DNA of 64,000 nucleotides, from assembly GCA_017527435.1 (NCBI GenBank), contig JAFXQB010000005.1:165322-229321 (forward strand), written 5' to 3'. The notes beneath the pieces were generated by a model. That model saw only the letters and a program-made list of their open reading frames with translations, was not told the origin of the DNA and made no database searches. Numbering within the stretch: position 1 is the stretch's first letter; every line of letters begins with the position of its first letter. This document shows positions 2,473 to 45,429 of the stretch, one piece after another. The translations under genes and the position numbers were made by a program. This stretch comes from Salinivirgaceae bacterium. Lineage in GTDB: Bacteria > Bacteroidota > Bacteroidia > Bacteroidales > SZUA-534.

Positions 2473-2514
2473 TTGAGCTTTCGTGATAGATGTTTGATTG
2501 TCAGATATATGCCG

Positions 2515-13475: not shown

Positions 13476-13558
13476 AGTGATAACAAACAGTTATTCAGTA
13501 TCTTCAACATAGTCACTTGACAAGTAAGTTTAAACTTTTGGAATGATTGTTTCTCAAC

Positions 13559-14914: not shown

Positions 14915-14972
14915 GATTCTTATTTTTAATAGGTGCAATAATACGATTTTTTCGATTACACCTGTTCGCCCG

Positions 14973-28767: not shown

Positions 28768-31700
28768 ATGTCGAAGAATTTTGTAACAGTTGACGGCAAC
28801 GAGGCTGCAGCGCACATTGCGTACGAGTTCACGGAGATTGCCGCAATCTACCCCATCACACCGTCGTCACCTATGGCGGAGCACACCGACGCGTGGTCGG
28901 CAAAAGGACGCAAAAATATTTTCGGTCAGCAAGTTACGCTGATTGAAATGCAGTCGGAGGCGGGTGCCATTGGTGCCGTTCACGGAGCGGCGCAGACGGG
29001 CTCGCTGGCCACAAGTTTCACATCGAGCCAAGGCCTTATGCTTATGATTCCGGTGCTGCACCGCATTGCTGGCGAGCGTCTGCCGGTGGTTCTGCACGTG
29101 GCCGCACGCACGGTGGGAACACACGCAATGAGCATCTTCGGCGACCATTCCGACGTTATGGGCTGCCGCAACACAGGTTTCGCAATGCTCTGCACGGGCA
29201 GCGTTCAGGAGGTTATCGACCTTGCCGGAGTGGCTCACCTGGCCGCCGTCAAGGGGCAGACGCCGTTTATGCACTTCTTCGACGGATTCCGCACGTCGCA
29301 CGAGATAAACACCGTGGAAATGATTGACACAAAGGCTCTTGCCGATATGCTCGACCGCGACGCCCTGCAAGCCTTCCGCTCACACGCTCTCAATCCGGAG
29401 CATCCGCTTATGCGCGGAACGGTGCAGAATCCCGACGTCTTCTTTCAAGTGCGCGAGGCCTGCAACCCTTACTACGACGCGCTTCCGCAGATTGTTGAAG
29501 ATTATTTCGAAAAGATAGGCACCCTGACAGGCCGCCACTATCACCTGTTCGACTACTACGGCGCAGCCGACGCCGACCGCGTCATTGTTGCAATGGGCAG
29601 TGTTTCGGGCGCGGTGAAAGAGGCCGTTGACAGCCTGAACGCCAAAGGCGAGAAGACTGGCTTTGTGCAGGTTCACCTTTACCGTCCGTTCAGCGCCGAG
29701 CATCTGCTCAAGGCACTGCCGCAGAGCGTCAAGAGCATTGCCGTGCTCGACCGCTGCAAGGAGCCCGGAAGCGCCGGCGAGCCGCTGTTTGAGGACGTCT
29801 GCTCGGTCATCCTGAACAGCGACAGAAAAATCAAGGTTGTGGGCGGCCGCTACGGACTTTCGTCGAAAGACACCGACCCGGGACAGATTCTGGCCGTGTT
29901 CGCCAATCTGTCTGAAAATGAGCCGAAAAACGGCTTCACCATCGGCATCACCGACGACGTTACGCACCTGTCGCTGCCAACACTGCCGTTCGACAATCAG
30001 GGCGGCGACACCTTCAGTTGCAAGTTCTGGGGCCTTGGCGGCGACGGAACGGTGGGCGCCAACAAAAACACCGTCCACATTGTGAGCGAGTGTGCAGGAC
30101 TCTACGGTCAGGCTTACTTTGAGTACGACGCCAAAAAGTCGTTCGGCGTGACCAAATCGCACCTGCGCTTCGGCAAAAACCCCATCGAAAGTTCGTACTA
30201 CGTGAAAAGCGCCGATTTTGTGGCCTGCCACAATCAGAGTTACATCGGCAAATACGATATTGTGTCGGAAGTGAAGCCGGGCGGCACGTTCCTTCTGAAC
30301 TGTACCAAAACCGACGCCGAACTTGAAGCGTGGCTTCCGGCTGACGTGAAACGGACGCTGGCACTCAACAAGATACGCTTCTGCGTGATTGACGCCACCG
30401 ACATTGCAATGAATATTGGTCTGGGAAGCCACACCAACACGGTGCTTCAGGCCGCCTTCTTCGCCTGCACGGGCATCATCAAGGCCGACGTGGCGCTCGA
30501 GGCTATGAAAGCCGCCTCCCGCAAGACCTATTTTGCTAAAGGCGAGGAAGTTGTGAACAAGAACGTGGCCGCCATCGACAAGGGTGCCGCCGGCGTTCGC
30601 GAGATTAAGGTTCCGGCTGCGTGGGCATCGGCTAAAGAAGTGGAAACCAATGCGGTGGACAACCGCCCCGCTGTGGTGCGCAATCTGCTCGAGCCCATCA
30701 ACGCGCAGAAGGGCGACGACCTGCCTGTGAGCGCTTTCGCCGATAACATCGACGGCACTCTGGAAATGGGCCTGACCGCCTACGAGAAGCGCGGCATTGC
30801 CGTGAAGGTGCCCGTCTGGAACACCGACAAGTGCATTCAGTGCAACCGCTGCTCGCTCGTCTGCCCGCACGCCGTCATCCGTCCATATCTGCTGAACGAG
30901 GCCGAAAAAGCCGCCGCGCCCGAAGGGTTCAAAACGGTTGTGGCCAACGGAAAGGCGAAGACTATGGGGCTTCATTTCGCCTTGAGCATATCGGCGCTCG
31001 ACTGCACAAGTTGCGGCAGTTGCGTGCAGAGTTGCCCGGCCAATGCGCTTGAAATGCAGCCGGCAGTGTTCAGCCAACAAGACCGCGACTGCTTCGAATA
31101 CGGATTGACAATCAGTCAGAAAGGCGATATTTTTGAGCCATACTCGATAAAGGGAAGCCAATTCCGTCAGCCGCTGCTCGAATTCTCGGCAGCCTGCGCA
31201 GGTTGCGGCGAGACGCCATACGCCAAACTGCTCACCCAACTGTTCGGCGACCGCGTGTTCTGGGCCAATGCCACAGGCTGCTCGCAGGCGTGGGGCTCGG
31301 CAATGCCCGGAATCCCTTACACGGTGAACCACCGCGGCTTCGGTCCGGCCTGGACCAACAGTCTGTTCGAGAACAATGCCGAACTCTGCCTGGGAATGTA
31401 TCTGTCTGTTAAACAGCGCCGTGCATTGCTCAAAGAGAAGATTGAGACTATGGCCGCCACAGCACAAGGCGACCTGAAAGAGGCTTGCGGCCAATGGCTG
31501 GCAACATTCGACGACATTGACAAATCGCGCGAAGCAACTGATACACTGATAGATAATCTGCAAAAGAACGCTGACGCAAAAGCGGCCGACATTCTGGCTC
31601 AGAAAGACGTTCTGTCGAAGAAGACCTTCTGGATGTTCGGCGGCGACGGCTGGGCCTACGACATTGGCTTCGGCGGCCTTGACCACGTGATTGCCGGCGG

Positions 31701-32247
31701 TGAGAATATCAATGTATTTATCATTGACACAGAGATTTACTCGAACACGGGCGGACAGAGCAGCAAGGCAACGCCGATGGGCGCTGTGGCAAAATTCGCC
31801 GCTTCGGGCAAAAAGAGCCGCAAAAAGGACCTTGGCGCCATAATGATGACCTACGGCAACGTGTATGTGGCGCAGGTGGCAATGGGCGCCGACCCGAACC
31901 AACTGATTAAGGCCGTGAAAGAGGCCGAGGAGTACGACGGACCGTCGATTGTGATTGCCTACACGCCTTGCGCGTCGCACGGAATCTGCATTGGTATGCA
32001 CCGCGTTCAGGAGGAGATGAAACGTGCCGTTGAGAGCGGCTACTGGCTGCTCTACCGCTACGACCCTCGCCGCGAGCACCCGTTCCAACTCGACTCGAAA
32101 GCGCCCACAATGCCATACAAGGAGTTCCTGGCCGGCGAGGTGCGCTACAACTCGCTCACCCGCAGTTTCCCCGAAAATGCCGAAAAACTCTTCGAGCAAG
32201 GCAGCCACGATGCCGAGGAGAGGTACAAACGGTATTCGGAGATGTGA
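28768..32247 (+). CDS. nifJ: Pyruvate:ferredoxin (flavodoxin) oxidoreductase
   Basis: 1159 aa from ATG 28768 (MSKNFVTVDGNEAAAHIAY); the track start 28717 is an upstream TTG. It has two 4Fe-4S ferredoxin motifs (CIQCNRCSLVCPHAVIRP; CTSCGSCVQSCPANAL) and the TPP motif GGDGWAYDIGFGGLDHV. Confidence 0.96.
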   Translation: MSKNFVTVDGNEAAAHIAYEFTEIAAIYPITPSSPMAEHTDAWSAKGRKNIFGQQVTLIEMQSEAGAIGAVHGAAQTGSLATSFTSSQGLMLMIPVLHRIAGERLPVVLHVAARTVGTHAMSIFGDHSDVMGCRNTGFAMLCTGSVQEVIDLAGVAHLAAVKGQTPFMHFFDGFRTSHEINTVEMIDTKALADMLDRDALQAFRSHALNPEHPLMRGTVQNPDVFFQVREACNPYYDALPQIVEDYFEKIGTLTGRHYHLFDYYGAADADRVIVAMGSVSGAVKEAVDSLNAKGEKTGFVQVHLYRPFSAEHLLKALPQSVKSIAVLDRCKEPGSAGEPLFEDVCSVILNSDRKIKVVGGRYGLSSKDTDPGQILAVFANLSENEPKNGFTIGITDDVTHLSLPTLPFDNQGGDTFSCKFWGLGGDGTVGANKNTVHIVSECAGLYGQAYFEYDAKKSFGVTKSHLRFGKNPIESSYYVKSADFVACHNQSYIGKYDIVSEVKPGGTFLLNCTKTDAELEAWLPADVKRTLALNKIRFCVIDATDIAMNIGLGSHTNTVLQAAFFACTGIIKADVALEAMKAASRKTYFAKGEEVVNKNVAAIDKGAAGVREIKVPAAWASAKEVETNAVDNRPAVVRNLLEPINAQKGDDLPVSAFADNIDGTLEMGLTAYEKRGIAVKVPVWNTDKCIQCNRCSLVCPHAVIRPYLLNEAEKAAAPEGFKTVVANGKAKTMGLHFALSISALDCTSCGSCVQSCPANALEMQPAVFSQQDRDCFEYGLTISQKGDIFEPYSIKGSQFRQPLLEFSAACAGCGETPYAKLLTQLFGDRVFWANATGCSQAWGSAMPGIPYTVNHRGFGPAWTNSLFENNAELCLGMYLSVKQRRALLKEKIETMAATAQGDLKEACGQWLATFDDIDKSREATDTLIDNLQKNADAKAADILAQKDVLSKKTFWMFGGDGWAYDIGFGGLDHVIAGGENINVFIIDTEIYSNTGGQSSKATPMGAVAKFAASGKKSRKKDLGAIMMTYGNVYVAQVAMGADPNQLIKAVKEAEEYDGPSIVIAYTPCASHGICIGMHRVQEEMKRAVESGYWLLYRYDPRREHPFQLDSKAPTMPYKEFLAGEVRYNSLTRSFPENAEKLFEQGSHDAEERYKRYSEM

Positions 32248-33298: not shown

Positions 33299-34027
33299 TC
33301 AAGCCATCAGCGCCACAATGCCGCTGACAGCCATGTAGGCATATATCACCTTCCGTAAGGCGGGTGAAGGAATCCGGTCGAACACTTTTTTGCCAATCCA
33401 TGAGCCAATCACCACGCCCACCAGCGCATACAGCCAGCACCAGCCCACCAGCGGCGTGCAGAAGCCGCATTGGGCACGGTAGACGGTCATAAACACATTG
33501 CCGATGAAAAAATAAACCTGCGTCTGCGCCAGATAACGCTCTTTATCCGATTCCGACGCCACAAAATAGAGCACGGCCGGCGGTCCCTGCATGGCGAAAA
33601 GTCCGCCCATGACACCACTCAAAGTTCCCATCGACAATTGGATTGGAATGGTCGGACGCAGATGGATTTTATCGCTAATTATCAGGAAGTAAGCGCTCAT
33701 CACTAAAAGTATTAGTCCAAGTAGATGCTTCAGGTGAGTGTCGCTTGCTATTGACACATACCGGACGGCAAAAAACGATACAACCAGAAAAGTGAGCAGT
33801 ATTGGTATCACCCGCTTCCAGTCAATCAGGCGGTAGATGGCCACAAGCACATAGAGCGACTGCGCCGCCGACAGCATCCCCGACAGAGTGGTGGCTTCGC
33901 CATACGAAGGCATCAAATGGGGGAGCATTGTCATTATGAAAATTCCAAACCCGAATCCGCTCACCCGTTGCACAAAACTCGCGCCGGTGCAGAAAACAAT
34001 TAACAGGATGATGGCTGTTGTTGTCAT
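33299..34027 (-). CDS. TauE/SafE family sulfite/anion exporter
   Basis: 242 aa with about 7-8 TM helices. Gly-rich helices (GTLSGVMGGLFAMQGPP) are typical of TauE/SafE permeases. Confidence 0.8.
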   Translation of the reverse strand: MTTTAIILLIVFCTGASFVQRVSGFGFGIFIMTMLPHLMPSYGEATTLSGMLSAAQSLYVLVAIYRLIDWKRVIPILLTFLVVSFFAVRYVSIASDTHLKHLLGLILLVMSAYFLIISDKIHLRPTIPIQLSMGTLSGVMGGLFAMQGPPAVLYFVASESDKERYLAQTQVYFFIGNVFMTVYRAQCGFCTPLVGWCWLYALVGVVIGSWIGKKVFDRIPSPALRKVIYAYMAVSGIVALMA

Positions 34028-34053
34028 AGCGGCTGCAAAGTTATTAGCTAATA

Positions 34054-34085
34054 TTGAATTTTTACCGCCAAAACCCTTATATTTG
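34054..34085 (+). promoter_or_regulatory. Candidate Bacteroides promoter of the LRR gene (-33 TTG, -7 TATATTTG)
   Basis: TATATTTG at 34078-34085 is an exact TAnnTTTG match. TTG at 34054-34056 lies 21 nt upstream. The ATG is 43 nt downstream. Confidence 0.5.
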
Positions 34086-34127
34086 TTCTTTGTGAATTCT
34101 TGATAACAAACTAAAACACATACTGCT

Positions 34128-37082
34128 ATGAAAAGATTTTTGGTCTTTCTGTTTGCCGTTGCGTTTGCCGGACAGGCGTGGGCAGATGAAGTAAATTTCG
34201 ATTTCTCTGCCGTATGCAGCAGTGGACAAACTTTGTATTACAAAATAATAAGTAGTACAGAAGTTGCAGTCACATTCCCGAATCGTTCGACAGGCGGCTA
34301 CGATGGCTACAACAAACCATCAGGAGCCATTGTTATTCCGGAAACAGTTGTTCACCCAGAAACCGGTGTGTCGTATAGTGTTACAAGCATTACCGCCGGC
34401 GCTTTTTATTATTGTGATATAACATCAATCAGTCTTCCTAATTGCATTACTAACGTTGGCATGTGGGCGTTTGGCGATTGGGACAAATTGCAATTTAATG
34501 AAGAAGAAGACGCAAAGTATTTGGGTAATGCAGAGAACCCGCATTTATGCCTAATGCGTGTAAAATCAGAAAACATTACAACATTCGAGATTAATAACAA
34601 TTGCAAGTGCATATCAGGAAGTGCGTTTAGTGGTAGCGGATTAGAATCAATAACTATTCCTAATAGTGTTGCAGGTATTAGCGAATCTGCCTTTGATGGT
34701 TGTGGGAAACTACGGGCAATAACCTTTGGCAACGGTATTAAAAAAATTGGTAATTATGCTTTTTCTGGTTGCAGCAAGCTTTATTCCATCAGCATACCCA
34801 ATTCAGTAACAAGTATTGGCGATTACGCATTTGAATATTGCAGCAACCTTTATTATGTTACTCTTGGCAGCGGCATTGAAACCATCGGCACAGATGCTTT
34901 CAATAATTGTCCGATTGAAACTCTAACCTATAACAGCAATATTGCAGGCTCAAAACTCGATGGATTAACAACGCTTAAAACTGTTAATGTGGGCAACCTG
35001 GTTACAAGCATTGGCAATGGTGCGTTTAAAAACAGCAGCGGTCTGACAGCAATAAACGTATCGGAAGAAAATAATGATTTTTGCTCAATTGACGGTGTGG
35101 TGTTCAGCAAAGACAAAAAAACACTGATACGTTGTCCGGCCGGAAAATCAGGCTCATACACCATCCCCGACGGTGTTACAGCTATTGGTAAGTATGCGTT
35201 CTGTGGTTGCAAAAGCCTTTCTTCGGTAACAATACCTAACAGCGTTACAAGCATCGGCGACTTTGCGTTCTATCAATGCCACGGCTTGGAATCAATTGCT
35301 ATCCCCGAAAGTGTAGAAAGTATTGCCGACAATGCATTTGGCAGTTGTTTAAAATTGAAATCGATAACTATCCCCGGTTCGGTAAAAAGTGTTGGTAACT
35401 CGGCATTTTCGATGTGTGTTTTGGAATCGGTAATTTTTGAAAATGGCGTTACAAGCATTGGAAGCTCTGTGTTCAGCAATTGCAAAAAACTGAAATCGGT
35501 AACCATTCCTAATTCTGTGACAAGTATTGGACAAAGTGCTTTCTATGAATGTAGTAATTTGGAATCGGTCACTCTTCCAAACAACATTACAAGTATTAAA
35601 TATGGTATGTTCAGCGGTTGCAGCAGTCTGCCGTCAATCAATATCCCTGAAGGTGTCACAAGCATTGCCGACTATGCGTTCAATGGTTGCAGTAGTTTTA
35701 CATCGATAACTATTCCGGGTTCGGTGACAAGCCTGGGCCATGGAGCATTATATGGTTGCAGCGGACTAACAGCAGTATGTATTCCTGAATCAGTAACAAG
35801 TTTCGGGAAGTATGTTTTTAAGAATTGTACCGATTTGGCGGGAGTTTGTTATGAAGGATGCAACGTTCCCGAATTTGGTGAAGCAATGTTCGATGGTGAT
35901 GACGGTTTAAACTATGTGTGCGTACCGGCAACGTATATGGGCGATTCTTGGGGTGGTAAGCCAACAATGAAAAGCGGACACCAAGTAACAACCGAGCCGG
36001 CAACCGCCACTTGCACTGAACCAGGGCTGTCAGAAGGCTCGTATTGCTCATGCTGCGGAAAAGTTTTCGCAACACCGCACGAAGTAGCTGCATTAGGTCA
36101 CAGCTACAGCACCACCGTTGTTACCCCAACTTGTACCGAAGTAGGTTACACAACGCACACCTGCTCTGCATGCAGCTATATGTATAATTCAGACACGGTT
36201 GCAGCCAAAGGCCACAAAGCCGATAGTGTTGAATTTGAGAATATTATACCGGCAACCTGCACCGCCGCCGGCTCAAAAGATTCTGTGGTTTTCTGCTCGG
36301 TTTGTCAACTTGAAATGAGTCGCGAAGAGCGTGCCATTCCAGCTCTCGGCCATACCGAAGTTGTGAATGAAGCTGTGGCGCCAACCTGCACTAAAGCCGG
36401 CAAGACCGAAGGAAAATACTGCTCTGTTTGCAATGCGGTGATTAAACTGCCGATTGCTATTCCGGCCACCGGCCATACAGCAGACAGTGTTGCGTTTGAA
36501 AACGTTGTGGCCGCAACCTGCACCGTTGCCGGCACAAAAGATTCGGTGGTCTATTGTTCGGTTTGCCAAGATGAGTTGTCACGTGAGACAAAAGAGATTC
36601 CGGCCAAAGGTCACACCGTTGTTATAGACGAAGCTGTTGAGCCAACCTGCACCAAAACAGGATTGGGAGAAGGCAAGCATTGTTCTGTTTGCAATGAATA
36701 CGATTGGACACAAGAACTTATACCACCATTAGGCCACGATTTTGGCAAGTACGTTTATAACAACGACGCCACTCTTGAAGCGGATGGCACTGAAACCGCC
36801 ATATGCTCACGTTGCGGCGAAAAAGACACCCACGTGGCCGAAGGCACCAAACTGAATGCCACCGCCGTTTCCGATGCTGCCAGCACGTTGAACATCTACG
36901 CCAACCACAACATTATTGTGGTTGAGAACGCCACCGATGAAATCCGTGTTTATGACGCAATGGGCAAATTAATTTGTAGGGACGTGGCGTGCCGCGTCTC
37001 TACAACCGAAATTCGCGTCACAACCCCCGGCGTTTACATTGTCAAAACCGGCAACGCAGTTAAACGGGTGGTGGTGAATTAA
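34128..37082 (+). CDS. Secreted BspA-type leucine-rich-repeat protein with Cys/His tandem repeats and a T9SS type A C-terminal sorting domain
   Basis: 984 aa. It has a signal peptide (FAVAFAGQAWA) and about 20 LRR_5-like units (IPNSVTSIGDYAF..C..L). Seven GH..PTCT..G...C..C repeats follow. The C-terminus LNIYANHNIIVVENATDEIRVYDAMGKLI...PGVYIVKTGNAVKRVVVN is typical of Por/T9SS tails. Confidence 0.85.
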   Translation: MKRFLVFLFAVAFAGQAWADEVNFDFSAVCSSGQTLYYKIISSTEVAVTFPNRSTGGYDGYNKPSGAIVIPETVVHPETGVSYSVTSITAGAFYYCDITSISLPNCITNVGMWAFGDWDKLQFNEEEDAKYLGNAENPHLCLMRVKSENITTFEINNNCKCISGSAFSGSGLESITIPNSVAGISESAFDGCGKLRAITFGNGIKKIGNYAFSGCSKLYSISIPNSVTSIGDYAFEYCSNLYYVTLGSGIETIGTDAFNNCPIETLTYNSNIAGSKLDGLTTLKTVNVGNLVTSIGNGAFKNSSGLTAINVSEENNDFCSIDGVVFSKDKKTLIRCPAGKSGSYTIPDGVTAIGKYAFCGCKSLSSVTIPNSVTSIGDFAFYQCHGLESIAIPESVESIADNAFGSCLKLKSITIPGSVKSVGNSAFSMCVLESVIFENGVTSIGSSVFSNCKKLKSVTIPNSVTSIGQSAFYECSNLESVTLPNNITSIKYGMFSGCSSLPSINIPEGVTSIADYAFNGCSSFTSITIPGSVTSLGHGALYGCSGLTAVCIPESVTSFGKYVFKNCTDLAGVCYEGCNVPEFGEAMFDGDDGLNYVCVPATYMGDSWGGKPTMKSGHQVTTEPATATCTEPGLSEGSYCSCCGKVFATPHEVAALGHSYSTTVVTPTCTEVGYTTHTCSACSYMYNSDTVAAKGHKADSVEFENIIPATCTAAGSKDSVVFCSVCQLEMSREERAIPALGHTEVVNEAVAPTCTKAGKTEGKYCSVCNAVIKLPIAIPATGHTADSVAFENVVAATCTVAGTKDSVVYCSVCQDELSRETKEIPAKGHTVVIDEAVEPTCTKTGLGEGKHCSVCNEYDWTQELIPPLGHDFGKYVYNNDATLEADGTETAICSRCGEKDTHVAEGTKLNATAVSDAASTLNIYANHNIIVVENATDEIRVYDAMGKLICRDVACRVSTTEIRVTTPGVYIVKTGNAVKRVVVN
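36975..37004. repeat. REP-family palindrome inside the LRR protein CDS
   Basis: TGTAGGGACGtggcgtgccgCGTCTCTACA is in frame as CRDVACRVST within the C-terminal sorting domain. Confidence 0.85.
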
Positions 37083-37112: not shown

Positions 37113-37141
37113 TGTAGAGACGATGTATACATCGTCTTTAC
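37113..37141. repeat. REP-family hairpin 30 nt after the LRR gene stop (probable terminator)
   Basis: tGTAGAGACGATGTA-TACATCGTCTTTAC is followed by T-rich sequence (tttttttact) and preceded by aatctgcgtaaat. Confidence 0.7.
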
Positions 37142-37398
37142 TTTTTTTACTGCAATTATTTCTAAAAACTTCCGCTCGCCAAAAATGTTTCGTCTTTTTC
37201 CAACGAAAACCTTTCGCCGAATCATCTTTTTTCAATCCTTCCTACATTCATTCAATTCTTCTTTTCCCCCTTCCCGTTTTCCCCTTCCCATTACCTTGGC
37301 ACACAATTTGCTAATACGTATATCCACCATTTTTATATGGCACAATTGTTTAAACAGCAAAATCACTAATTTCGCGCGATTTTTTTGAACTTATTAAG

Positions 37399-38811
37399 AT
37401 GAAACGTAAAATCACCATTGGCGACATTACAATGAAACAGGCCGCCGACAAGGCCGACTACGCCTTCTCGTTCCGCGAGAAGATTGAATTGGCCAAAATG
37501 CTTGACAAAACAGGCCTTTCGGTCATTGAACTTGCACCTATAACCGACGGCAAAACCGACTCGCTGCTAATCAAATCGCTCGCTTCGGCGGTGAAGAACA
37601 GCGCTGTGGCCGTGCCGCTCAACATTAGCGAGGCCGACACCGTTGAAACCACTTGGAACGCCCTGAAGGGCGCCGCTCACCCGCGATTGCAGATTTCGGT
37701 TCCTGTGAGCACCGTGCAGATGGAATATTTCTGCCATAAGAAACCCGCCGCCATTGTCGAGATGATTGCCAGCCTGACAAAGCAAAGCCGTGCGCTCTGC
37801 CCCGATGTTGAGTTTGTGGCCGAAGATTTTGGCCGCAGTGACATCAGTTTCCTGTGGCAGGCCATTGAAGCCGCCACGCAGAACGGCGCAACCACCGTCA
37901 CGGTGTGCGACGCCGCAGGCAACCTGCTGCCCGAAGAGTTTTTCGACCTTGTGAAACAGGTGAAAGTGCACCTGCCCGCTGGTGTTCGGTTGGGCGTTCG
38001 CTGCTCAAACGAGTTCTATTTGGCCGACTCGTGCGCCATTGCCGCCGTGCGTGCGGGTGCCGACGAGATTAAGACCGCGCCCTTCGGCAACTTCACCGTT
38101 TCGCTCGAAAGGTTTGTCAAGATACTGAACGTGAAAGCCGATGTGTGCGACGCCTGCTGCGACGTGCGTGCCACCGAACTGCACCGCGCCGTTGAGCAAA
38201 TCAAGCGCCTGTGCCAGACCAACCGTTCGAAACCCACTTCGTTCTCGAACATTGCCCCAACCGAGCGCCCCGACATTCAACTCACCGTGCGCGACTCGAA
38301 AGAGACCGTGCTCAAGGCCGTGCAGAGTCTGAACTTCGACCTGACCGACGAAGATGCCGACAATGTTTACAACGAATTCCTGAAAGCCGCCGCCACTCAC
38401 GAGACCGTTGGCGCGAAGGAACTCGACGCCATTATCGCCACAGCGGCGTTCCAGGTGCCACCAACCTATAAATTAGAGAATTACGTTATCAATTCGGGCA
38501 ACATTATCTCGGCCACCTGCCACATTCTCTTGAAGAAGGGCGACGATGTGCTCGAGAGCGTCTGCATTGGCGACGGCCCGATTGACGCCGCCTTCCAGGC
38601 CATTGAGAAAGTCATCGGCAAGCACTACGAACTCGACGACTTCCAGATTCAGGCCGTGACCGAAGGCCGCGAGGCAATGGGCGAAACCGTTGTCCGCCTG
38701 CGCTCTGAAGGCAAAATCTACTCGGGCCGCGGAATCTCAACCGACATTGTCGGCTCAAGCATTGCCGCCTACCTGAACGCCGTCAACAAGATAGCATTCG
38801 AAGAGGCATAA
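37399..38811 (+). CDS. Isopropylmalate/citramalate-synthase homologue lacking catalytic residues, with an intact LeuA regulatory (dimerisation) domain
   Basis: 470 aa. It is colinear with LeuA, but DTTLRDGEQ is replaced by DITMKQAAD and HCHNDLG by RCSNEFY. VEFVAEDFGRSD and VTVCDAAGNLLPEEF are retained. The C-terminal domain GDGPIDAAFQAIEKV...GREAMGETVVRLRSEGKIYSGRGISTDIVGSSIAAYLNAVNK matches LeuA_dimer. Confidence 0.75.
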   Translation: MKRKITIGDITMKQAADKADYAFSFREKIELAKMLDKTGLSVIELAPITDGKTDSLLIKSLASAVKNSAVAVPLNISEADTVETTWNALKGAAHPRLQISVPVSTVQMEYFCHKKPAAIVEMIASLTKQSRALCPDVEFVAEDFGRSDISFLWQAIEAATQNGATTVTVCDAAGNLLPEEFFDLVKQVKVHLPAGVRLGVRCSNEFYLADSCAIAAVRAGADEIKTAPFGNFTVSLERFVKILNVKADVCDACCDVRATELHRAVEQIKRLCQTNRSKPTSFSNIAPTERPDIQLTVRDSKETVLKAVQSLNFDLTDEDADNVYNEFLKAAATHETVGAKELDAIIATAAFQVPPTYKLENYVINSGNIISATCHILLKKGDDVLESVCIGDGPIDAAFQAIEKVIGKHYELDDFQIQAVTEGREAMGETVVRLRSEGKIYSGRGISTDIVGSSIAAYLNAVNKIAFEEA

Positions 38812-38849
38812 ATCGAAAATTATCAGCATTTTACAGAAAATCACTTAAA

Positions 38850-41336
38850 ATGAAACTTTCATTTTCAACACGCGGATGGGCCGATATGTCGTGGACCGAA
38901 ATCCTTGACAACGCAAGCCTGATGCGCTTTTCGGGTATCGAGATATACAACGTTTTCAAAACGCCTGAATTTGTGGCCAAGGGCGGGCCGTTCCACAAGT
39001 ACTCGCTCACGGCTTCGCTGCGCGATTTGCGCGAGAAGAAACTCGCCATTCCCTGCTTCGACAGTTCGCTCGACCTTTCGGAAGACAGCGCCGAGATGAT
39101 TGACGAGATGACCGCCCTCATTGGCATTGCCGCCGATATGCGCAGCCCATACGTTTGCGCTTTCGCGAAGAAGGGCACCGTTGAGCAGGTGAAGCAGAAC
39201 CTGACCCGACTCATTCCTGTGGCCGAAGCCAAGGGTATCACCATTCTGATAAAGACCAGCGGAATATACGCCGACACGGCGCTGCTGCGCGATTTGCTCG
39301 ACTTTTTCGCCTGCGACCAGATTGCCGTCATTTGGGATGTGCACCACCCCTACCGCGACAAGGGCGAGACGCCTGCGCAGACAATCACCAACCTTGGCGC
39401 ATACGTTAAGCACGTGCACCTTCGCGACAGCGACGACGCCAACCGCTACAACATTATCGGCGAGGGCAACTTCCCCATTGCCGACGTGATGAAGGCCCTT
39501 TCGTCGGTCGATTACGACGGGTTTATCTCGCTTGAGTGGAAGCCCGAGTGGATGCTCGACTTCACCGACCGCGACGTCATTTTCCCGCACTTTGTCAACT
39601 ATATGAGCCAGTTCGAGAACACCCGCGGCAAGCGCAGCGAACTCTACCCGAACCACGACGGCTCAGGCTACTACATTTGGAAGAAGGACGAGCTGCTGAA
39701 TATGACCTTCTCGCAGGTTTTGGACCGCGTGGTTGAGGAATTCCCCGACCAGTACTGCTTCAAATACACCACTTTGGACTACACCCGCACCTACGCCGAG
39801 TTCCGCGACGATGTTGACAACTTCGCCCGCGCGCTTGTATCGCTCGGCGTGCGCCCAGGCTCGAAGGTGGCCGTTTGGTGCACCAACATACCTGCTTGGT
39901 ACATAACATTTTGGGCAACCGTAAAAATCGGCGCCGTGCTTGTGACGGTGAACACCGCCTACAAGATTCACGAGGCCGAATATCTGCTGCGGCAGTCTGA
40001 TACTCACACACTTGTGATGATTGAGAGCGCCTTGGACTCGAACTATCGCGCCATTATCAACGAACTCTGTCCCGAGATTGCCACCAACACGGCGGGCAAG
40101 CCGCTTCACTGCAAGCGTCTGCCGTTCCTGCGCAACGTTATCACCGTGGGCTTCCGCCAGAAAGGCTGCCTGACGCTGCAACAGGCGATGGACCGCCACG
40201 ACCTTGTGCCGTTGGAGGAAATCCAGCGAATGGCCGCCGCCGTCAAACCCGACGACGTGTGCAATATGCAGTACACCAGCGGCACCACGGGCTTCCCCAA
40301 GGGCGTGATGCTGACGCACTACAACGTGGTGAACAACGGCAAGTGCATTGGCGACCGTATGGGCCTTTCAACCGCCGACCGAATGATGATTCAGGTGCCG
40401 ATGTTCCACTGCTTCGGAATGGTTCTGTCGATGACTTCGTCGATGACGCACGGTACCACAATGTGCCCGATGCCCTACTTCTCGGCCAAATCGTCGTTGG
40501 CGTGCATAAACCAGGAACACATAACCTGCTTCAACGGCGTGCCCACAATGTTCATTGCAATGTTCAACCACCCCGACTACCGCAGCACCGACTTCTCATA
40601 TATGCGCACAGGCATTATGGCAGGCTCAGGCTGTCCACCCGAACTGATGCGCCGTGCCGCCGAGCCGTCGGAGATGAATATGCGCGGCATTGTGAGCGTT
40701 TACGGACAGACCGAATCGGCGCCAGGCAGCACAATGTCGGCTTGGACCGACTCAATCGACGTGCGCACCGAGACCGTGGGCTACGCCTTCCCGCACGTGC
40801 GCTGCAAGGTGGTTGACCCCGAAACGGGCCTTGAGGTTCCGCCCAACACCAACGGCGAGTTCTGCGCCAAAGGCTACAACGTGATGAAAGGCTACTACAA
40901 GATGCCCGAAGCCACCGCGCAGACCATTGACGCCGACGGTTGGCTTCACAGCGGCGACCTTGCCTGCGTTGACGAGAACGGAAACTACAAAATCACAGGC
41001 CGCCTGAAAGATATGATTATCCGCGGCGGCGAGAATATCTATCCAAAAGAGATTGAGGAGTTTATCTACACCCACCCCAAGGTGAAGGACGTTCAGGTTA
41101 TCGGCGTTCCCGACGAGAAATACGGCGAGGAGGCAATGGCCTGCATTATTCTGAAGGAGGGCGAGGAGATAAGCGAACCCGAAATGCGCGAATTCATTAT
41201 GGGCCGCCTTGCCCGCCACAAGGTTCCGCGCTATATCGATTTCGTCAAATCGTTCCCGATGAACGCCGCAGGCAAAATCCTGAAATACAAGATGCGCGAG
41301 GAGGCCGTGGAGAAATTGGGGCTGAAGAAGAAATAA
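38850..41336 (+). CDS. Fusion protein: xylose-isomerase-like TIM barrel (AP endonuclease 2 fold) plus AMP-dependent acyl-CoA synthetase/ligase
   Basis: 828 aa, 38 nt after the previous gene. The N-terminal about 265 aa resemble sugar-phosphate isomerase/epimerase TIM barrels (..GIEIY.., HVHLRD, ISLEWKPEW). The C-terminal about 550 aa carry adenylate-forming motifs YTSGTTGFPKG, VYGQTESAP, WLHSGDLA, GRLKDMIIRGGENIYPKEIE and PMNAAGKILK. Confidence 0.85.
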   Translation: MKLSFSTRGWADMSWTEILDNASLMRFSGIEIYNVFKTPEFVAKGGPFHKYSLTASLRDLREKKLAIPCFDSSLDLSEDSAEMIDEMTALIGIAADMRSPYVCAFAKKGTVEQVKQNLTRLIPVAEAKGITILIKTSGIYADTALLRDLLDFFACDQIAVIWDVHHPYRDKGETPAQTITNLGAYVKHVHLRDSDDANRYNIIGEGNFPIADVMKALSSVDYDGFISLEWKPEWMLDFTDRDVIFPHFVNYMSQFENTRGKRSELYPNHDGSGYYIWKKDELLNMTFSQVLDRVVEEFPDQYCFKYTTLDYTRTYAEFRDDVDNFARALVSLGVRPGSKVAVWCTNIPAWYITFWATVKIGAVLVTVNTAYKIHEAEYLLRQSDTHTLVMIESALDSNYRAIINELCPEIATNTAGKPLHCKRLPFLRNVITVGFRQKGCLTLQQAMDRHDLVPLEEIQRMAAAVKPDDVCNMQYTSGTTGFPKGVMLTHYNVVNNGKCIGDRMGLSTADRMMIQVPMFHCFGMVLSMTSSMTHGTTMCPMPYFSAKSSLACINQEHITCFNGVPTMFIAMFNHPDYRSTDFSYMRTGIMAGSGCPPELMRRAAEPSEMNMRGIVSVYGQTESAPGSTMSAWTDSIDVRTETVGYAFPHVRCKVVDPETGLEVPPNTNGEFCAKGYNVMKGYYKMPEATAQTIDADGWLHSGDLACVDENGNYKITGRLKDMIIRGGENIYPKEIEEFIYTHPKVKDVQVIGVPDEKYGEEAMACIILKEGEEISEPEMREFIMGRLARHKVPRYIDFVKSFPMNAAGKILKYKMREEAVEKLGLKKK

Positions 41337-41384
41337 AAATCACAGAGAGCGCAGAGGAAACGAGAGAACACAGAGTTTAAATAG

Positions 41385-41417
41385 CAAGGCTGCCTGATTG
41401 GGCGGCCTTGTTTTATT
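41385..41417 (+). terminator. Rho-independent terminator of the 37399..41336 operon
   Basis: caaggctgcc-tgattg-ggcggccttg forms the stem, followed by TTTTATT. Confidence 0.7.
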
Positions 41418-41709: not shown

Positions 41710-42831
41710 ATGAAAAAGTTTATAATTCTGTTGCTATTGTTTATTTGTATAAACGGCAATTGTCAAAGCATAGACGAGATTTTGACAAAATTTGAACAAA
41801 TACAAAGTTATGCACGGCATCGCCTACTTAATTATCGCAGCTACCGCTACAGGCCTTTGCAAGATTTTAGTAGCGAATTGCCATTTAGTTTTGGATTAAC
41901 ACATTTAGACAATCCCACTTATAATGGGTTTGATTTATCGACACGAGGTGTTTTTTCCGATTCCTCTATGCAGATGCGCATACTTCAATTATTGAATAAT
42001 GAATTCTACGATGGTGAGGTTGACGACTTGTGGAAAAAAGATATGCAAAAAAACAATTATGCAAATTTGACTGATAGTTTGTTGCGCATAAAAAGGATAG
42101 AAAGAGAAACTTGTTATAAAAAGTATATTGATGAAAATGAATTGGTTGATTTGTTGGAAATTTGCACATACATAAATAACAAGCAAATAATCAAAAGAAT
42201 TGAAGAAATTTACAAAGACACCACATACCGCAAAAATTGGGCAGATGCTTACGCTTGTCTTGTTGCCAACCATATAGAGCCATATACTTCAGAATGTCTC
42301 AAAAAATATAGGTATAAGAAAGAACAATCATATGAAGAACAAGTATTGGCATGCAATTATTTATGGCTGATTCAAACTCAACAATCATTTAGGTACTTAT
42401 CTGAATATTTATTTTCAGATAAGTACTACACAAACATTATATGCGAAGATAATACGTATGAATGCGAGTCATTGGATGACATTATTGTTGAGATAGATTG
42501 TGAATCGGGAGTTGCAGATACGATTATTAAATGTGAAAATAATACGAATAAAGGCGATACATTGAAATACGATATTGATGTAGATTATATTGATTTAGAA
42601 GATGAAGATACAAATCCAATAATAGCGGAATGGGAATATAAAACATATTTGTATTGGGGAGTTTTCTCTATTATCCAAAAGAGCATTTTAAATCTAGACT
42701 TGTATGACATGCTGGGCATAACAAATGACATATTTGTATCTCAAGAATTCTTGACAGAAGAAACTCGTAAAAAGATTTATAATTGGATGCAGGAAAATTA
42801 TGGTAAGTATAAAATCAAGAATCGTTGGTAA
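41710..42831 (+). CDS. Hypothetical secreted protein (AT-rich, Cys/Asp/Glu/Tyr-rich)
   Basis: 373 aa with a signal peptide (MKKFIILLLLFICINGNCQS). AT content is very high. No family recognised. Its ATG overlaps the stop of a 33-codon upstream ORF (ATGA). Confidence 0.6.
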   Translation: MKKFIILLLLFICINGNCQSIDEILTKFEQIQSYARHRLLNYRSYRYRPLQDFSSELPFSFGLTHLDNPTYNGFDLSTRGVFSDSSMQMRILQLLNNEFYDGEVDDLWKKDMQKNNYANLTDSLLRIKRIERETCYKKYIDENELVDLLEICTYINNKQIIKRIEEIYKDTTYRKNWADAYACLVANHIEPYTSECLKKYRYKKEQSYEEQVLACNYLWLIQTQQSFRYLSEYLFSDKYYTNIICEDNTYECESLDDIIVEIDCESGVADTIIKCENNTNKGDTLKYDIDVDYIDLEDEDTNPIIAEWEYKTYLYWGVFSIIQKSILNLDLYDMLGITNDIFVSQEFLTEETRKKIYNWMQENYGKYKIKNRW

Positions 42832-42899
42832 TAAAAGAAATTTGTGTCGCATATTTCGCAAAATACTATCAATATGAAGAAAACAAAACCAACTAAACC

Positions 42900-42989
42900 A
42901 TGCCAAACCTTAGAAAACTACTAATGGTGCTGCTGTGTGCTGTCTGCGGTACGGCAGCGGGGCAAACCTACACCACAAAAACGCAATGA
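42900..42989 (+). pseudogene. Possible remnant of a secreted-protein gene (signal peptide only)
   Basis: The GC-normal 29-codon ORF MPNLRKLLMVLLCAVCGTAAGQTYTTKTQ* looks like a signal peptide followed immediately by a stop and repeat-derived sequence. Speculative. Confidence 0.3.
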
Positions 42990-43043
42990 AAAAATACCGC
43001 AAGGCTTGCCGGGAATGCCGGGGTTGTATGGGGTGCCCTTAAC

Positions 43044-43198
43044 GTAGAGACGCGGCGCGCCACGTTTGTGCAGGTGGCGGGCGTTAGTGAAGCATAGAAA
43101 AATCTGCGCAAATCTGTTCAATCTGCGTCGTCTGCGTTCAAAAAATCTGCGTACCCCGATAGTTTATCGGGACTGTGTCGTCAGTGCGAGAATAAACA
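43044..43198 (+). repeat. Composite REP-derived tail, copy B
   Basis: GTAGAGACGcggcgcgccaCGTTTGTGC is a REP with a decayed right arm. It is followed by gaaaaatctgcgcaaatctgttcaatctgcgtcgtctgcgttcaaaaaatctgcgta, then CCCGATAgttTATCGGG (43154-43170), then gtgcgagaataaacac. The same modules occur at 28441-28636 in a different order. Confidence 0.75.
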
Positions 43199-43206
43199 CA
43201 ATTTTT

Positions 43207-43214
43207 TAAATTTG
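43207..43214 (+). promoter_or_regulatory. Candidate -7 box TAAATTTG
   Basis: It is an exact TAnnTTTG match 16 nt upstream of ATG 43230. Confidence 0.45.
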
Positions 43215-43229
43215 ACACATTAAAACTTG

Positions 43230-43865
43230 ATGGATATGAAATCAATAGTTGCCGTTATCGCGTCGCTGACATTGCTGTTTACGGGGATTTATATCGCTCT
43301 TATGCTTAGAATCAATTCCACACCAGGAGCATTCAACTATCCAGCCAGTAATATCTCGGAACCCAACAGACAAGCGATAGAAAAAACACTGAAAGTATTT
43401 CAAGAAGGTTACACGTTGCGCGATGTGTCGAAAATCGACGAGTGCATAGCCCAAACCATCGACACCGCTTCGATTTTTATTTTGGGCACCAATCCCAACG
43501 AAATATTCGAGGGGAAAGACGGGGCGCAGGCGCTGCTATATGGCGATTGGACATATTGGGGCAGTGTGAAATATGACATCGACCGCCTTTATGCCAACCA
43601 AATCGCCGACAGCATTGCTTATGTGGTTTTCCCAGGAAATATCACACTTGATGTTGGAAAAATGAACTTCCCACTGCAAGTTACAGGCTTGATGGCGCAA
43701 GATGAGGACGGCCAGTGGAAATTCTCGAAAATGCAGTTCATATATGGTTGGAACACCAATTATATCATCTTCGCCCGCATTGCGGCTTACGGAACCCTGA
43801 TTCTACTGGCAGCGCTGCTGGCGTTTATCTGCATCATAAGGTGCGTATTGAGCCGAAAGAAATAA
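43230..43865 (+). CDS. Hypothetical membrane protein with a possible NTF2/SnoaL-like (DUF4440-like) central domain
   Basis: About 211 aa, with the start at ATG 43230 or 43236. It has N- and C-terminal TM helices. The central region (IEKTLKVFQEGYTLRDVSKIDECIAQ...QWKFSKMQFIYG) resembles NTF2-fold proteins from memory only. Confidence 0.5.
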   Translation: MDMKSIVAVIASLTLLFTGIYIALMLRINSTPGAFNYPASNISEPNRQAIEKTLKVFQEGYTLRDVSKIDECIAQTIDTASIFILGTNPNEIFEGKDGAQALLYGDWTYWGSVKYDIDRLYANQIADSIAYVVFPGNITLDVGKMNFPLQVTGLMAQDEDGQWKFSKMQFIYGWNTNYIIFARIAAYGTLILLAALLAFICIIRCVLSRKK

Positions 43866-44200
43866 GGAATACATTCCGTTCTGATTCTGTGTCGTCTGTG
43901 TGATATAAAATCTACGTTATCTGCGTTCAAAAAATCCATGCAAGAACAAACGCAAAATGCTGTGTAGCTGCTAGTTTGGTAGCGTTTTTTATGCAGTTTC
44001 GAAAAAAAATTTAATACCCACGCAACCTTTTCACAAACACCAGCGTCTTGGAAACGTGAAAAGTAATTCCGATGACTGCAAACATCGATTTAATTTGCAG
44101 ATTGAAATTAATATCTATATTTGTTGATATGAAAACTTGTTTTAGCAACAGTGAAAAAATCATGCATGACAGGCATAACCTGCTGAATGCCAGCATTTTA

Positions 44201-44225
44201 CCCCCCCCCCCCCCACCCCACCCCA
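44201..44225. repeat. Homopolymeric tract C14-A-C4-A-C4-A (G-quadruplex-capable on the minus strand)
   Basis: Direct count: 44201-44214 are all C, then a cccc a cccc a. It lies 121 nt upstream of ATG 44346. Confidence 0.95.
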
Positions 44226-44345
44226 CGCTCAGATAATCTCACTTGCAATAAAAAAAATGAGCAGCCTTCACGGCCGAGCATTTTCAATGTCACTAGACTA
44301 ATTCCATTTTTTAATAATTATTGTTTAACTCTTAAATCATTTTTT

Positions 44346-45395
44346 ATGAAAAAATTATGTGTTTTTGGAATGCTGTTACTGTCCACAGCAGCTATGGCTC
44401 AGTATGGAACCAATGGCGAATCGGGCAGATACCACGTTGTTAAATTCCCAAAGTACTATGTGGAGCAAGACCAACGGACATTTGCTGTTAATGTTGACAT
44501 TGCGACAAAGAAAGTCGCAGGCTATGTGGATGCCGAAGAATTGGCAGAAAAAGTGCGGTTCAAAGGTTGGTCAAAAACACCTGAAGACAAAGCTTATTTG
44601 AATATTAAAATCACGTTAGGCGAGTTTCTTTATCTTTCAACAGAAATACTTGATCAATCTGTTGATGAAAAGCAAAAAGACGGTAGCGTTAAACGCAAAC
44701 CTATTTATGTAGGTTCTTTTAAGTATTCTTTCCCCATCACTCTCTCTCTGACATCGCCTGTCAACAATGATAAGTATCGTCTTAACCAAGATGGGATGAT
44801 GGTTAAGACTCTGACTTATACCGATGACCACAAGTTTTCAACCCGTGCTGATGCTTCTGCGTTTATGAAAGAAAACAGAGATGTTCTTAGTGAAAAAGTT
44901 ATTAGACAACTTGCGAACGAAGCAGCCGCAAGTGCGGTAAATTCGGCCGTTATTGATTATGGTTTCGCAAGCACAACCGAAAAAGCATCTTATGTTTTCT
45001 TAGATTCAAAAAAGAATCCTCACTATGAATCTCAAAAGAACGCTAATACACAACTTAAAGAGATATTCAAGACAAGTTCTGCTGATGAACCAATTAGTTC
45101 TGATGCGTTAACTCCAATTATTGAAGAATACATTAGCATAATAAACGAATTGAATGATGCTGATAAAAAGCAACTGAAAGCTAAAATTGAGCTTATAACT
45201 TCTGTTGCAGAGTTCTATCTTATGCTGGATGATCTTGCATCATGCGAAACTTGGGCCAAACGCGCGTTTGACGAATATAAGGAGAAAGATGGTTCAAAAA
45301 TTTTGGAAAAAGCAGCCGCAGTGAAGGCTTTGTTTGACAAGCACCATGTTACTTCACGCCATTTTGTTCCGCAAGCTCCTGCTGTTGAAGAATAA
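44346..45395 (+). CDS. Hypothetical secreted protein
   Basis: 349 aa from ATG 44346 (MKKLCVFGMLLLSTAAMAQ signal peptide). The track start 44187 reads through the poly-C tract and is rejected. The C-terminal third is helical and Lys/Glu-rich. No family recognised. Confidence 0.6.
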   Translation: MKKLCVFGMLLLSTAAMAQYGTNGESGRYHVVKFPKYYVEQDQRTFAVNVDIATKKVAGYVDAEELAEKVRFKGWSKTPEDKAYLNIKITLGEFLYLSTEILDQSVDEKQKDGSVKRKPIYVGSFKYSFPITLSLTSPVNNDKYRLNQDGMMVKTLTYTDDHKFSTRADASAFMKENRDVLSEKVIRQLANEAAASAVNSAVIDYGFASTTEKASYVFLDSKKNPHYESQKNANTQLKEIFKTSSADEPISSDALTPIIEEYISIINELNDADKKQLKAKIELITSVAEFYLMLDDLASCETWAKRAFDEYKEKDGSKILEKAAAVKALFDKHHVTSRHFVPQAPAVEE

Positions 45396-45429
45396 TATTA
45401 CTTTTAATAACAATTAATAATTAACAAAA

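Follow-up and report, generated by a model that had tools for sequence, protein, structure and literature searches.

A LeuA-derived pseudoenzyme paired with a TIM-barrel-fused acyl-CoA ligase: a probable leucine-controlled acyl-activation module

Introduction

Why should bacteria keep a homologue of the isopropylmalate synthase LeuA that has lost its active site, and keep it directly in front of a gene for an acyl-CoA ligase? This question is raised by two genes on the same strand of a 64,000-nucleotide (nt) stretch of DNA from a Salinivirgaceae bacterium (assembly GCA_017527435.1, contig JAFXQB010000005.1, positions 165,322 to 229,321), the whole of which is called the window here. Gene 1, or LEUAX, occupies positions 37399-38811 (470 aa), and gene 2 (38850-41336, 828 aa) codes for a xylose-isomerase-like TIM (triosephosphate isomerase) barrel fused to an adenylate-forming acyl-CoA ligase. 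A sequence-only reading of the window had taken gene 1 for a pseudoenzyme and, as one hypothesis, the pair for an amino-acid- or keto-acid-responsive acyl-activation module. Here we propose, with a probability of roughly 60%, that the pair is a leucine-controlled acyl-activation module feeding the reductive carboxylation of isovalerate to leucine, and that gene 1 is its leucine-sensing part.

From rumen nutrition it is known that branched-chain volatile fatty acids are required, or at least used, by many fibre-degrading or gut anaerobes to build their branched-chain amino acids. According to the work of Allison and co-workers from the 1960s to 1984, rumen and gut Bacteroides/Prevotella reportedly make leucine by carboxylation of isovalerate; these classical studies are said to have relied on labelling and enzyme assays, without gene assignments. 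In the literature we found no assignment of genes for the isovalerate activation step and its control. Full-text searches gave no description of the gene pair and none linking the isovalerate-to-leucine route to these genes, and the databases searched label the two proteins merely 'hypothetical protein' and 'AMP-binding protein'.

Results

Gene 1 Has the LeuA Fold without the LeuA Active Site

Pfam assigns residues 5-231 of gene 1 to HMGL-like (PF00682, E-value 1.4e-29) and residues 339-465 to LeuA_dimer (PF08502, E-value 9.2e-31). Sequence and profile alignments to the solved LeuA structures 3ewb, 3rmj, 3eeg and 6e1j bore out that the protein is colinear with LeuA and that its active-site motifs are substituted, as had been read from the sequence. 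In DITMKQAAD, the counterpart of the LeuA motif D-T-T-L-R-D-G-E-Q, the substrate arginine is replaced by Lys13 and the metal-binding aspartate by Gln14, and in RCSNEFY, which stands opposite HCH(D/N)DLG, both histidines of the H-x-H motif are gone (R201-C-S203). The loss goes beyond these two motifs: the GERAGN loop is absent in both kinds of alignment and, with respect to LeuA-length sequences, about 30 residues are deleted that form the subdomain bearing the H-x-x-G-x-H of genuine LeuA. Metal ligands at shifted positions were sought in sequence, profile and fold alignments of gene 1, and none were found. The best NCBIfam LeuA model, NF002086, gives 267.8 bits versus a cut-off of 532, and all NCBIfam LeuA models score gene 1 at about half their cut-off or below. 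When family conservation was scored over 68 non-identical homologues, the former metal-ligand positions 14, 201 and 203 were variable, and position 13 was occupied by lysine in 46, by arginine in 13 and by other residues in nine.

The best-conserved region of gene 1 in the same set of homologues is the LeuA-type regulatory domain, with 37 of its 120 positions conserved to 95% or more. No other part of gene 1 is closer to genuine LeuA, with which this domain shares a GDGP(I/V)DA loop and a TDI..SS..AY..A.NK helix. Purifying selection on gene 1 is strong. The AlphaFold model of gene 1, with a mean pLDDT (predicted local distance difference test) of 82, could be placed by Foldseek on the LeuA catalytic domain 3ewb with a target-normalised TM (template modelling) score of 0.91 and a root-mean-square deviation of 2.0 Å, and it matches the full-length, leucine-bound LeuA of M. 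tuberculosis (3fig) with an E-value of 1e-22; the scaffold and the C-terminal domain are therefore intact, as had been supposed. Strong purifying selection, with the regulatory domain as the most conserved part, fits a retained ligand-binding role and not decay, and a decaying pseudogene was ruled out, since gene 1 is full length and highly conserved. As judged from sequence comparison, these results indicate that gene 1 is a pseudoenzyme retained for something besides the Claisen condensation.

Three proteins of LeuA length, P0369, P0386 and P0368 (503-516 aa), possess the catalytic subdomain, and their motifs are degenerate in part; DSTLCEGER is combined with HSQNDLG, for instance, and DTTLCDGEQ with RAYNDLG. 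Such proteins may be intermediates, or LeuA lineages that degenerate independently.

The Two Genes Are Strictly Paired in Three Phyla

Relatives of gene 1 occur in at least 559 species-level genomes of Bacteroidota, Bacillota and Actinomycetota, the carriers being Bacteroidales, Oscillospiraceae, Lachnospiraceae, Christensenellales, Erysipelotrichaceae, Peptococcaceae and Eggerthellaceae. They fall into more than 120 clusters at 58% identity or more, and a 50%-identity library yielded 338 representatives at an E-value below 1e-30, some 120 of them of full length and with identities as low as roughly 30%. Loci of relatives were fetched (80 in the main set; L numbers below), and the fused gene 2 lies directly 3' of gene 1 in 77 of them, the contigs of the other three ending first. 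Co-occurrence, which had been raised as a matter for Bacteroidales, thus holds without exception wherever the contig allows, and extends well outside that order. Two divergent members, 31% and 37% identical to gene 1 of the window, are likewise followed by the fusion. The stop codon of gene 1 overlaps the start codon of gene 2 in 51 of the 77 loci (ATGA in 43, TAATG in eight), and in the window a spacer of 38 nt separates the two. The two genes are translationally coupled and strictly paired.

Since the same fused frame of gene 2 recurs in at least 59 independent assemblies of three phyla, the fusion is conserved, and an assembly or frameshift artefact, which had been thought of as a possible source of it, was ruled out. 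Identities across phyla amount to 70-87% for the ligase, 42-69% for the barrel and 50-62% for gene 1. In the fetched loci, leuBCD was never found beside gene 1. With LeuA/CimA, gene 1 shares the collinear two-domain architecture of an HMGL-like barrel and a LeuA_dimer domain as well as the regulatory motifs GxGP(I/V)DA and TDI..(A/S)S..AY..A.N; unlike them, it is devoid of the Asp/His/His metal site, the GERAGN loop and the catalytic subdomain, falls far below every LeuA equivalog cut-off, and has an acyl-CoA ligase gene as its partner instead of leuBCD.

Two minor observations concern gene 2. The ligases of T-box-bearing Oscillospiraceae (L014, L015) and of Bacteroidales (L010-L013) are both 84-86% identical to that of the window, with interleaved ranks of similarity, which suggests lateral spread and would be explained if the module had passed between phyla fairly recently or if the constraint were unusually strong. 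The homologue at L081:2968-4533 has in-frame TGA codons at conserved tryptophan positions (W10, W15, W162 and W230, window numbering), so this organism probably reads TGA as tryptophan, as in genetic code 4.

Leucine-Linked Control of the Pair in Relatives

In nearly all Bacillota loci, a motif search located a T-box core motif 75-140 nt 5' of gene 1, and T-box leaders at or above the Rfam gathering score were obtained directly 5' of gene 1 in this phylum. After alignment of 46 leaders, the specifier was read as the three bases before the last unpaired base that precedes the basal stem of stem I, and the register was checked against the Rfam structure line and against the B. subtilis glyQS leader. 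All 32 aligned leaders 5' of gene 1 carry CUC or CUG, which are synonymous leucine codons, and none carries a methionine specifier. In experimentally verified cases, T-box specifier codons agree with the function of the regulated genes (PMC2494555). A different arrangement was observed in five loci of Eggerthellaceae/Coriobacteriia, in which the pair is preceded by a short leucine-rich leader open reading frame (ORF) ending in GNGLLLSLLLI*, GHSLLLSLLLI*, GNEALLNLLLI*, GNLLLGLLLI* or GNELLGLLLI*. In all five, a hairpin of -25 to -30 kcal/mol abuts the stop codon of the leader ORF, and this is, to judge by its sequence, the layout of a classical leucine attenuator.

Two unrelated mechanisms in two phyla thus tie the pair to leucine shortage, and we show here, on the evidence of the leader sequences, that relatives in both phyla place it under leucine-specific control. 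The earlier idea of an amino-acid-responsive module is thereby supported and can be narrowed to leucine. In Bacteroidales, the upstream regions contain a promoter-like box, yet no convincing leader peptide or conserved RNA, and an Rfam search of eight Bacteroidales and Eggerthellaceae loci returned tRNAs only and no riboswitch.

The ilv-leu operon of B. subtilis is governed by a Leu-specific T-box with a CUC specifier, and leu operons by attenuation at a leader peptide rich in leucine codons. The pairs of Bacillota and Actinomycetota make use of both mechanisms with the same amino-acid specificity. In contrast to those operons, the genes regulated here are not those of the isopropylmalate pathway, and neither element is found in the Bacteroidales window.

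Gene 2 Combines a Complete Ligase with a TIM Barrel

The 828-aa fusion, with the full set of ligase motifs and the catalytic lysine, was confirmed as it had been described. Its Pfam domains are AP_endonuc_2 (PF01261, residues 27-232, E-value 6.9e-18), AMP-binding (PF00501, residues 292-683, E-value 1.8e-89) and AMP-binding_C (PF13193, residues 734-809, E-value 3.3e-16). The core motifs of the ligase, YTSGTTGFPKG (P-loop), the hinge-type GRLKDMIIRGGENIYP and PMNAAGKILK, are invariant or nearly so across 44-52 homologues, and the catalytic Lys809 (PMNAAGK809ILK) is invariant in the alignment. The best NCBIfam model, with 670 bits, is PRK12583 (fatty acid CoA ligase family, short/medium-chain), a generic family model below whose cut-off gene 2 stays. 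Solved relatives of the ligase include 8weu/8wev, FadD13 (3r44), MatB (4fut) and the 3-methylmercaptopropionate (MMPA)-CoA ligase 6ijb, and matches in the PDB reach an E-value of 5e-79. In having all core motifs and both subdomains, gene 2 resembles the ANL short/medium-chain acyl-CoA ligases, unlike which it bears a 260-residue N-terminal xylose-isomerase-like TIM barrel and is unusually conserved between phyla.

For the barrel, a profile search against PDB sequences gave generic relatives only, namely MJ1311 (3wqo), AsbF (3dx5), tagatose/ketose 3-epimerases and IolI. In the alignment to ketose 3-epimerases, D163, H190 and E229 coincide with three of the four canonical metal ligands and are conserved, and the first metal glutamate is Lys135, a position at which 42 of 52 members have lysine and eight have glutamate. 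The gene 2 model has pLDDT values above 90 over TIM residues 1-250 and is poor over the ligase part (mean pLDDT 69); with this model, the 50 Foldseek matches listed were ligase chains only, and no fold-level neighbours of the TIM barrel were among them. The barrel belongs to the same Pfam family as MJ1311, AsbF, the ketose 3-epimerases and IolI, with three of four metal ligands aligned, and differs from them in that the first metal/catalytic glutamate is mostly lysine, in the absence of a sugar-metabolism context and in the fusion to a ligase. The barrel was also considered as an AsbF-like dehydratase that would provide the ligase with an aryl acid, a reading that was dropped because the regulation is leucine-specific and the catalytic glutamate is not conserved.

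Seven loci of Acutalibacteraceae and other Clostridia (L067, L074, L075, L076, L078-L080) have an Amidohydro_2 gene 3' of gene 2 that seems to be part of the Leu-T-box unit. The Amidohydro_2 family takes in reversible decarboxylases and lactonases, and together with the fused TIM barrel this gene may bring in chemistry additional to the proposed route. It is one of the observations on which a different view of gene 1 can be built, namely that it is a neofunctionalised, metal-independent enzyme which, with the TIM barrel, performs an extra step in leucine supply, for instance on isovaleryl-CoA, 2-oxoisocaproate or another precursor. Such an enzyme would also account for the invariant residues E44, S104, E109, Y110, K115, D143, R146, D171, E223 and K225 in the barrel of gene 1, and the fused barrel keeps D163, H166, H190, D193 and E229 along with conserved arginine and lysine residues, much like a working site. 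Several of the invariant residues are, however, conserved in LeuA too, for structural or CoA-binding reasons; the LeuA metal-ligand positions vary and no new conserved set has taken their place, the H-x-x-G-x-H subdomain is deleted, and the strongest constraint falls on the regulatory domain and not on the barrel. Moreover, the route is already complete with ligase, oxidoreductase and aminotransferase. We regard this alternative as unlikely and prefer leucine sensing as the role of gene 1.

Oxidoreductase, Aminotransferase and Paralogous Ligases near the Pair

Neighbouring genes were counted within 8 kb of the pair, and separately for the 42 loci whose flanks measure 4 kb or more on each side (long-flank loci). 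A single-chain pyruvate:ferredoxin oxidoreductase (PFOR) or a three-subunit 2-oxoacid:ferredoxin oxidoreductase is present in 43 of 80 loci and in 29 of the 42 long-flank loci. The single-chain type, found in Bacteroidales and many Clostridia, lies directly 3' of the pair in 22 loci; the three-subunit type, found in others, lies directly 5' of gene 1, or 5' of an intervening branched-chain aminotransferase (BCAT) gene, in at least nine. BCAT, which passes the NCBIfam equivalog, was found in 14 of 80 loci. In L014 all of these elements form a single unit, consisting of a promoter, a Leu T-box with terminator, gene 1, gene 2, BCAT, PFOR and a terminator, and the same gene order is seen in L015, L023 and L024. 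The PFOR of the window is orthologous, at 87-91% identity, to those that lie directly 3' of the pair in the closest relatives (L007, L008 and L009). By this linkage it would belong to the module, and it is a candidate for the carboxylation of isovaleryl-CoA.

A frequently adjacent oxidoreductase gene, together with strict pairing and translational coupling, might also be expected if gene 1 were a passive scaffold or channelling adaptor through which the ligase hands isovaleryl-CoA on to the ferredoxin oxidoreductase, with no sensing of leucine. Foldseek matches of the gene 1 model to the aldolases DmpG/AmnG (1nvm, 8ih7), which are of the same TIM-barrel superfamily and work in channelling complexes with a dehydrogenase, agree with this idea. 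A mere tether, however, has no need of the LeuA regulatory domain, on which selection is strongest and in which the GDGP(I/V)DA loop is intact, and many loci are without a nearby oxidoreductase. For these reasons we consider a purely passive adaptor quite improbable, and leucine sensing remains our preferred role for gene 1.

In Clostridia, the clusters that contain the pair also harbour paralogous ligases of about 760 aa, with an N-terminal XRE-type helix-turn-helix (HTH) and a cupin domain. Their T-boxes specify isoleucine (AUC) in L046, L048, L067, L074 and L076-L080 and valine (GUA) in L075; in L048 and L072, the P-loop/oxidoreductase/BCAT genes likewise have a GUA (Val) T-box in front of them. 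Downstream of the HTH-cupin ligases there is usually a gene for a MinD/Mrp-like P-loop ATPase, with three-subunit oxidoreductase and BCAT genes after it. Paralogous ligases behind Ile and Val T-boxes suggest one ligase per branched-chain amino acid. The joining of an adenylating enzyme to a DNA-binding domain in these proteins may recall BirA. In two further T-box-like leaders before P-loop/oxidoreductase/BCAT genes, at L046:~3250-3520 and L071:~3230-3500, GCA and GAA stand at the specifier position; their relatives read GUA (Val), and both leaders score below the Rfam gathering score.

Discussion

The proposed scheme begins with the ligase half of gene 2, which would convert isovalerate, ATP and CoA to isovaleryl-CoA. 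A linked ferredoxin-dependent 2-oxoacid oxidoreductase, for which the PFOR at 28768-32247 is the candidate in the window, would carboxylate this to 4-methyl-2-oxopentanoate (2-oxoisocaproate), and a BCAT would convert the latter to leucine. Gene 1 would bind the ligase, probably via the fused TIM barrel, and impose leucine feedback on the ATP-consuming first step. AMP-forming ligases run toward the thioester, ferredoxin oxidoreductases can add CO2 to an acyl-CoA, and BCAT completes the amino acid; with these activities under leucine-specific control, a path from isovalerate to leucine is the simplest reading. In Bacteroidales and Clostridia of the rumen and gut, the neighbourhood supplies all three activities of the classical route, from acid activation through ferredoxin-dependent carboxylation to transamination, and differs from it by two accessory TIM-barrel proteins that the classical work did not foresee. 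Isovalerate as the substrate, a physical complex of the two proteins, the binding of leucine to gene 1 and the part played by the TIM barrel are inferences within this scheme.

Gene 1 is taken for the leucine sensor because it keeps the feedback-binding part of LeuA, is made in step with the ligase and is specific to the leucine branch. It is most plausibly a leucine-sensing partner of the ligase that was recruited in a way similar to HisZ. HisZ is a dead histidyl-tRNA synthetase paralogue which serves as the histidine-sensing subunit of the ATP phosphoribosyltransferase HisG. The logic would be the same in both cases, in that a paralogue recognising the end product gives up catalysis and is taken into the first, ATP-consuming enzyme as an allosteric subunit, though neither the folds nor the enzymes of the two systems are related. 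The view of gene 1 as a pseudoenzyme and not a decaying gene, put forward in the sequence-only reading, has held up on account of its full length, the purifying selection and the well-conserved regulatory domain, and for its role we infer leucine sensing or scaffolding.

Several observations weigh against the isovalerate-to-leucine reading. As regards the sensor, a search with the regulatory domain alone against PDB sequences gave no informative match, and the residues of the leucine pocket could not be mapped onto solved LeuA. As regards the chemistry, the pathway could run without the TIM barrel and without gene 1, and the barrel keeps most of a polar, metal-type site, which hints at a further catalytic step. 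Thirteen of the 42 long-flank loci have no oxidoreductase within 8 kb. The PFOR linked to the pair scores above the NCBIfam equivalog cut-off for pyruvate:ferredoxin oxidoreductase and might thus be no more than the housekeeping enzyme for pyruvate. In the window itself, the PFOR lies 5 kb 5' of the pair, behind three unrelated genes (AIM24, TauE and BspA-like), and its position directly 3' of the pair in L007-L009 implies that the locus has been rearranged here. Moreover, no aminotransferase is adjacent to the pair in the window and no BCAT was found among the window ORFs scanned, and Rfam detected tRNAs only in the window, with no T-box or known riboswitch.

A last point on this side is the presence of a homoserine O-acyltransferase gene (MetA/MetX) near the pair in nine loci of two phyla, directly 5' of gene 1 in eight of them, with a gap of only 4 nt to a MetX gene in L010; that of L062 lies farther upstream, at about 6 kb. 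This adjacency is not explained by the isovalerate model. It would be better accommodated if the module, though still serving leucine supply, activated another acid, such as 2-hydroxyisocaproate as a different leucine precursor, or a broad range of short acids, or if it handled 3-methylthiopropionate for methionine. Substrate specificity is not readable from sequence, the best family model is generic and scores gene 2 below its cut-off, and the 3-methylmercaptopropionate-CoA ligase 6ijb is among both the sequence and the fold relatives. All of the 32 specifiers are leucine codons and none is a methionine codon, however, the oxidoreductase and BCAT neighbours suit the one-carbon extension of a C5 branched acid, and separate paralogous ligases with Ile and Val T-boxes speak against one broad enzyme. 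We give a substrate other than isovalerate only a slim chance, and isovalerate is retained as the proposed substrate.

The component families are already known, and the pathway is an old biochemical observation. What appear to be new are the pseudoenzyme family, its obligatory pairing with a TIM-fused ligase and the assignment to leucine. The pair probably supplies so-far unassigned genes for making leucine from isovalerate, and the module offers a concrete candidate set of ligase, accessory pseudoenzyme, PFOR and BCAT, for which two independent regulatory systems indicate leucine. More tentatively, and with more doubt than confidence, the whole may be joined in one picture, in which LeuA pseudoenzyme and TIM-fused ligase constitute a new allosteric switch for leucine feedback and, with the PFOR-type enzyme and BCAT, the genetic basis of the isovalerate-to-leucine route. 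If so, it would cover hundreds of species across three phyla, and the HTH-cupin ligases behind Ile and Val T-boxes would serve 2-methylbutyrate and isobutyrate likewise. The module would let the trait be scored in metagenomes, with a bearing on isoacid feed supplementation and on the production of branched-chain amino acids in the gut, and it would add a clear new case in which the paralogue of an enzyme has been put to use as a regulatory or structural subunit. The present case also illustrates that T-box specifier codons can assign function to unannotated operons.

The Locus and Its Surroundings

The features of the window and of the relative loci are compiled in Table 1. In a sequence comparison, the window agreed at 100% identity with a contig of a genome from sheep abomasum that is labelled Salinivirgaceae (order Bacteroidales). 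The two-gene unit is bounded on the left by the hairpin that closes the upstream BspA-like gene. A candidate promoter box, TAATTTCG, named after TAnnTTTG, which we take to be the consensus of the Bacteroidetes -7 box, occurs at an equal distance from the start codon in the nearest relatives (L005, L007, L008 and L009). A terminator 3' of the pair had been placed at 41385-41417; the hairpin is indeed present, its coordinates being 41383-41412.

Table 1. Positions of the features discussed, in window numbering or, where an L number is given, in that of the relative locus.
Feature	Position	Strand	Basis or remarks
Single-chain PFOR (PFOR/NifJ type)	28768..32247	+	Pfam POR_N, POR, EKR, PFOR_II, TPP_enzyme_C, Fer4; ATG at 28768
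Terminator-like hairpin closing the upstream BspA-like gene	37114..37141	+	12-bp stem, then T run; left limit of the two-gene unit
Candidate Bacteroidetes-type -7 promoter box	37367..37374	+	25 nt 5' of the gene 1 start codon
Gene 1 (LEUAX), putative LeuA-derived pseudoenzyme, 470 aa	37399..38811	+	HMGL-like and LeuA_dimer; metal triad lost; fold intact
DITMKQAAD, degenerate counterpart of LeuA D-T-T-L-R-D-G-E-Q, residues 9-17	37423..37449	+	Alignment to solved LeuA
RCSNEFY, degenerate counterpart of LeuA H-x-H-(N/D)-D-L-G, residues 201-207	37999..38019	+	Opposite HCH(D/N)DLG in alignments
LeuA-type regulatory (allosteric/dimerisation) domain, residues 351-470	38449..38808	+	Pfam LeuA_dimer; holds the GDGPIDA loop at nt 38569-38589
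Gene 2, N-terminal xylose-isomerase-like TIM barrel, residues 1-262	38850..39635	+	Pfam AP_endonuc_2
Gene 2, adenylate-forming acyl-CoA ligase, residues 281-828	39690..41336	+	AMP-binding and AMP-binding_C; proposed substrate isovalerate
Terminator-like hairpin closing the two-gene unit	41383..41412	+	13-bp stem, 7 G-C pairs, then T-rich tail
HTH-cupin ligases	L075:606-2897; L051:11930-16502; L048:~840-3108; L067:~13180-15114; others		
Amidohydro_2 gene	L067:12002-12805; L074:7950-8765; L075:11906-12724		
Homoserine O-acyltransferase, MetX type	L010:6974-7996; L011; L016; L035		
Homoserine O-acyltransferase, MetA type	L020:7045-7926; L026		
Homoserine O-acyltransferase, opposite strand	L058; L059; L062		

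The genes around the pair in the window are ordinary chromosomal ones and include DnaE, a class A penicillin-binding protein, tryptophanyl-tRNA synthetase, Dxs, an H+-pyrophosphatase and RNase R. On the 3' side, four consecutive ORFs on the same strand (373, 212, 402 and 268 aa) occupy 41710-46236 in a stretch of 39% GC; Pfam gave no significant match for these four and one weak, sub-threshold SnoaL-like match. On the 5' side, the BspA-type gene (34128-37082) codes for a leucine-rich-repeat protein of 984 aa with a sorting tail of the type IX secretion system, and it lies in a low-GC stretch, the GC content of 34001-36000 being 41% versus roughly 49-57% nearby.

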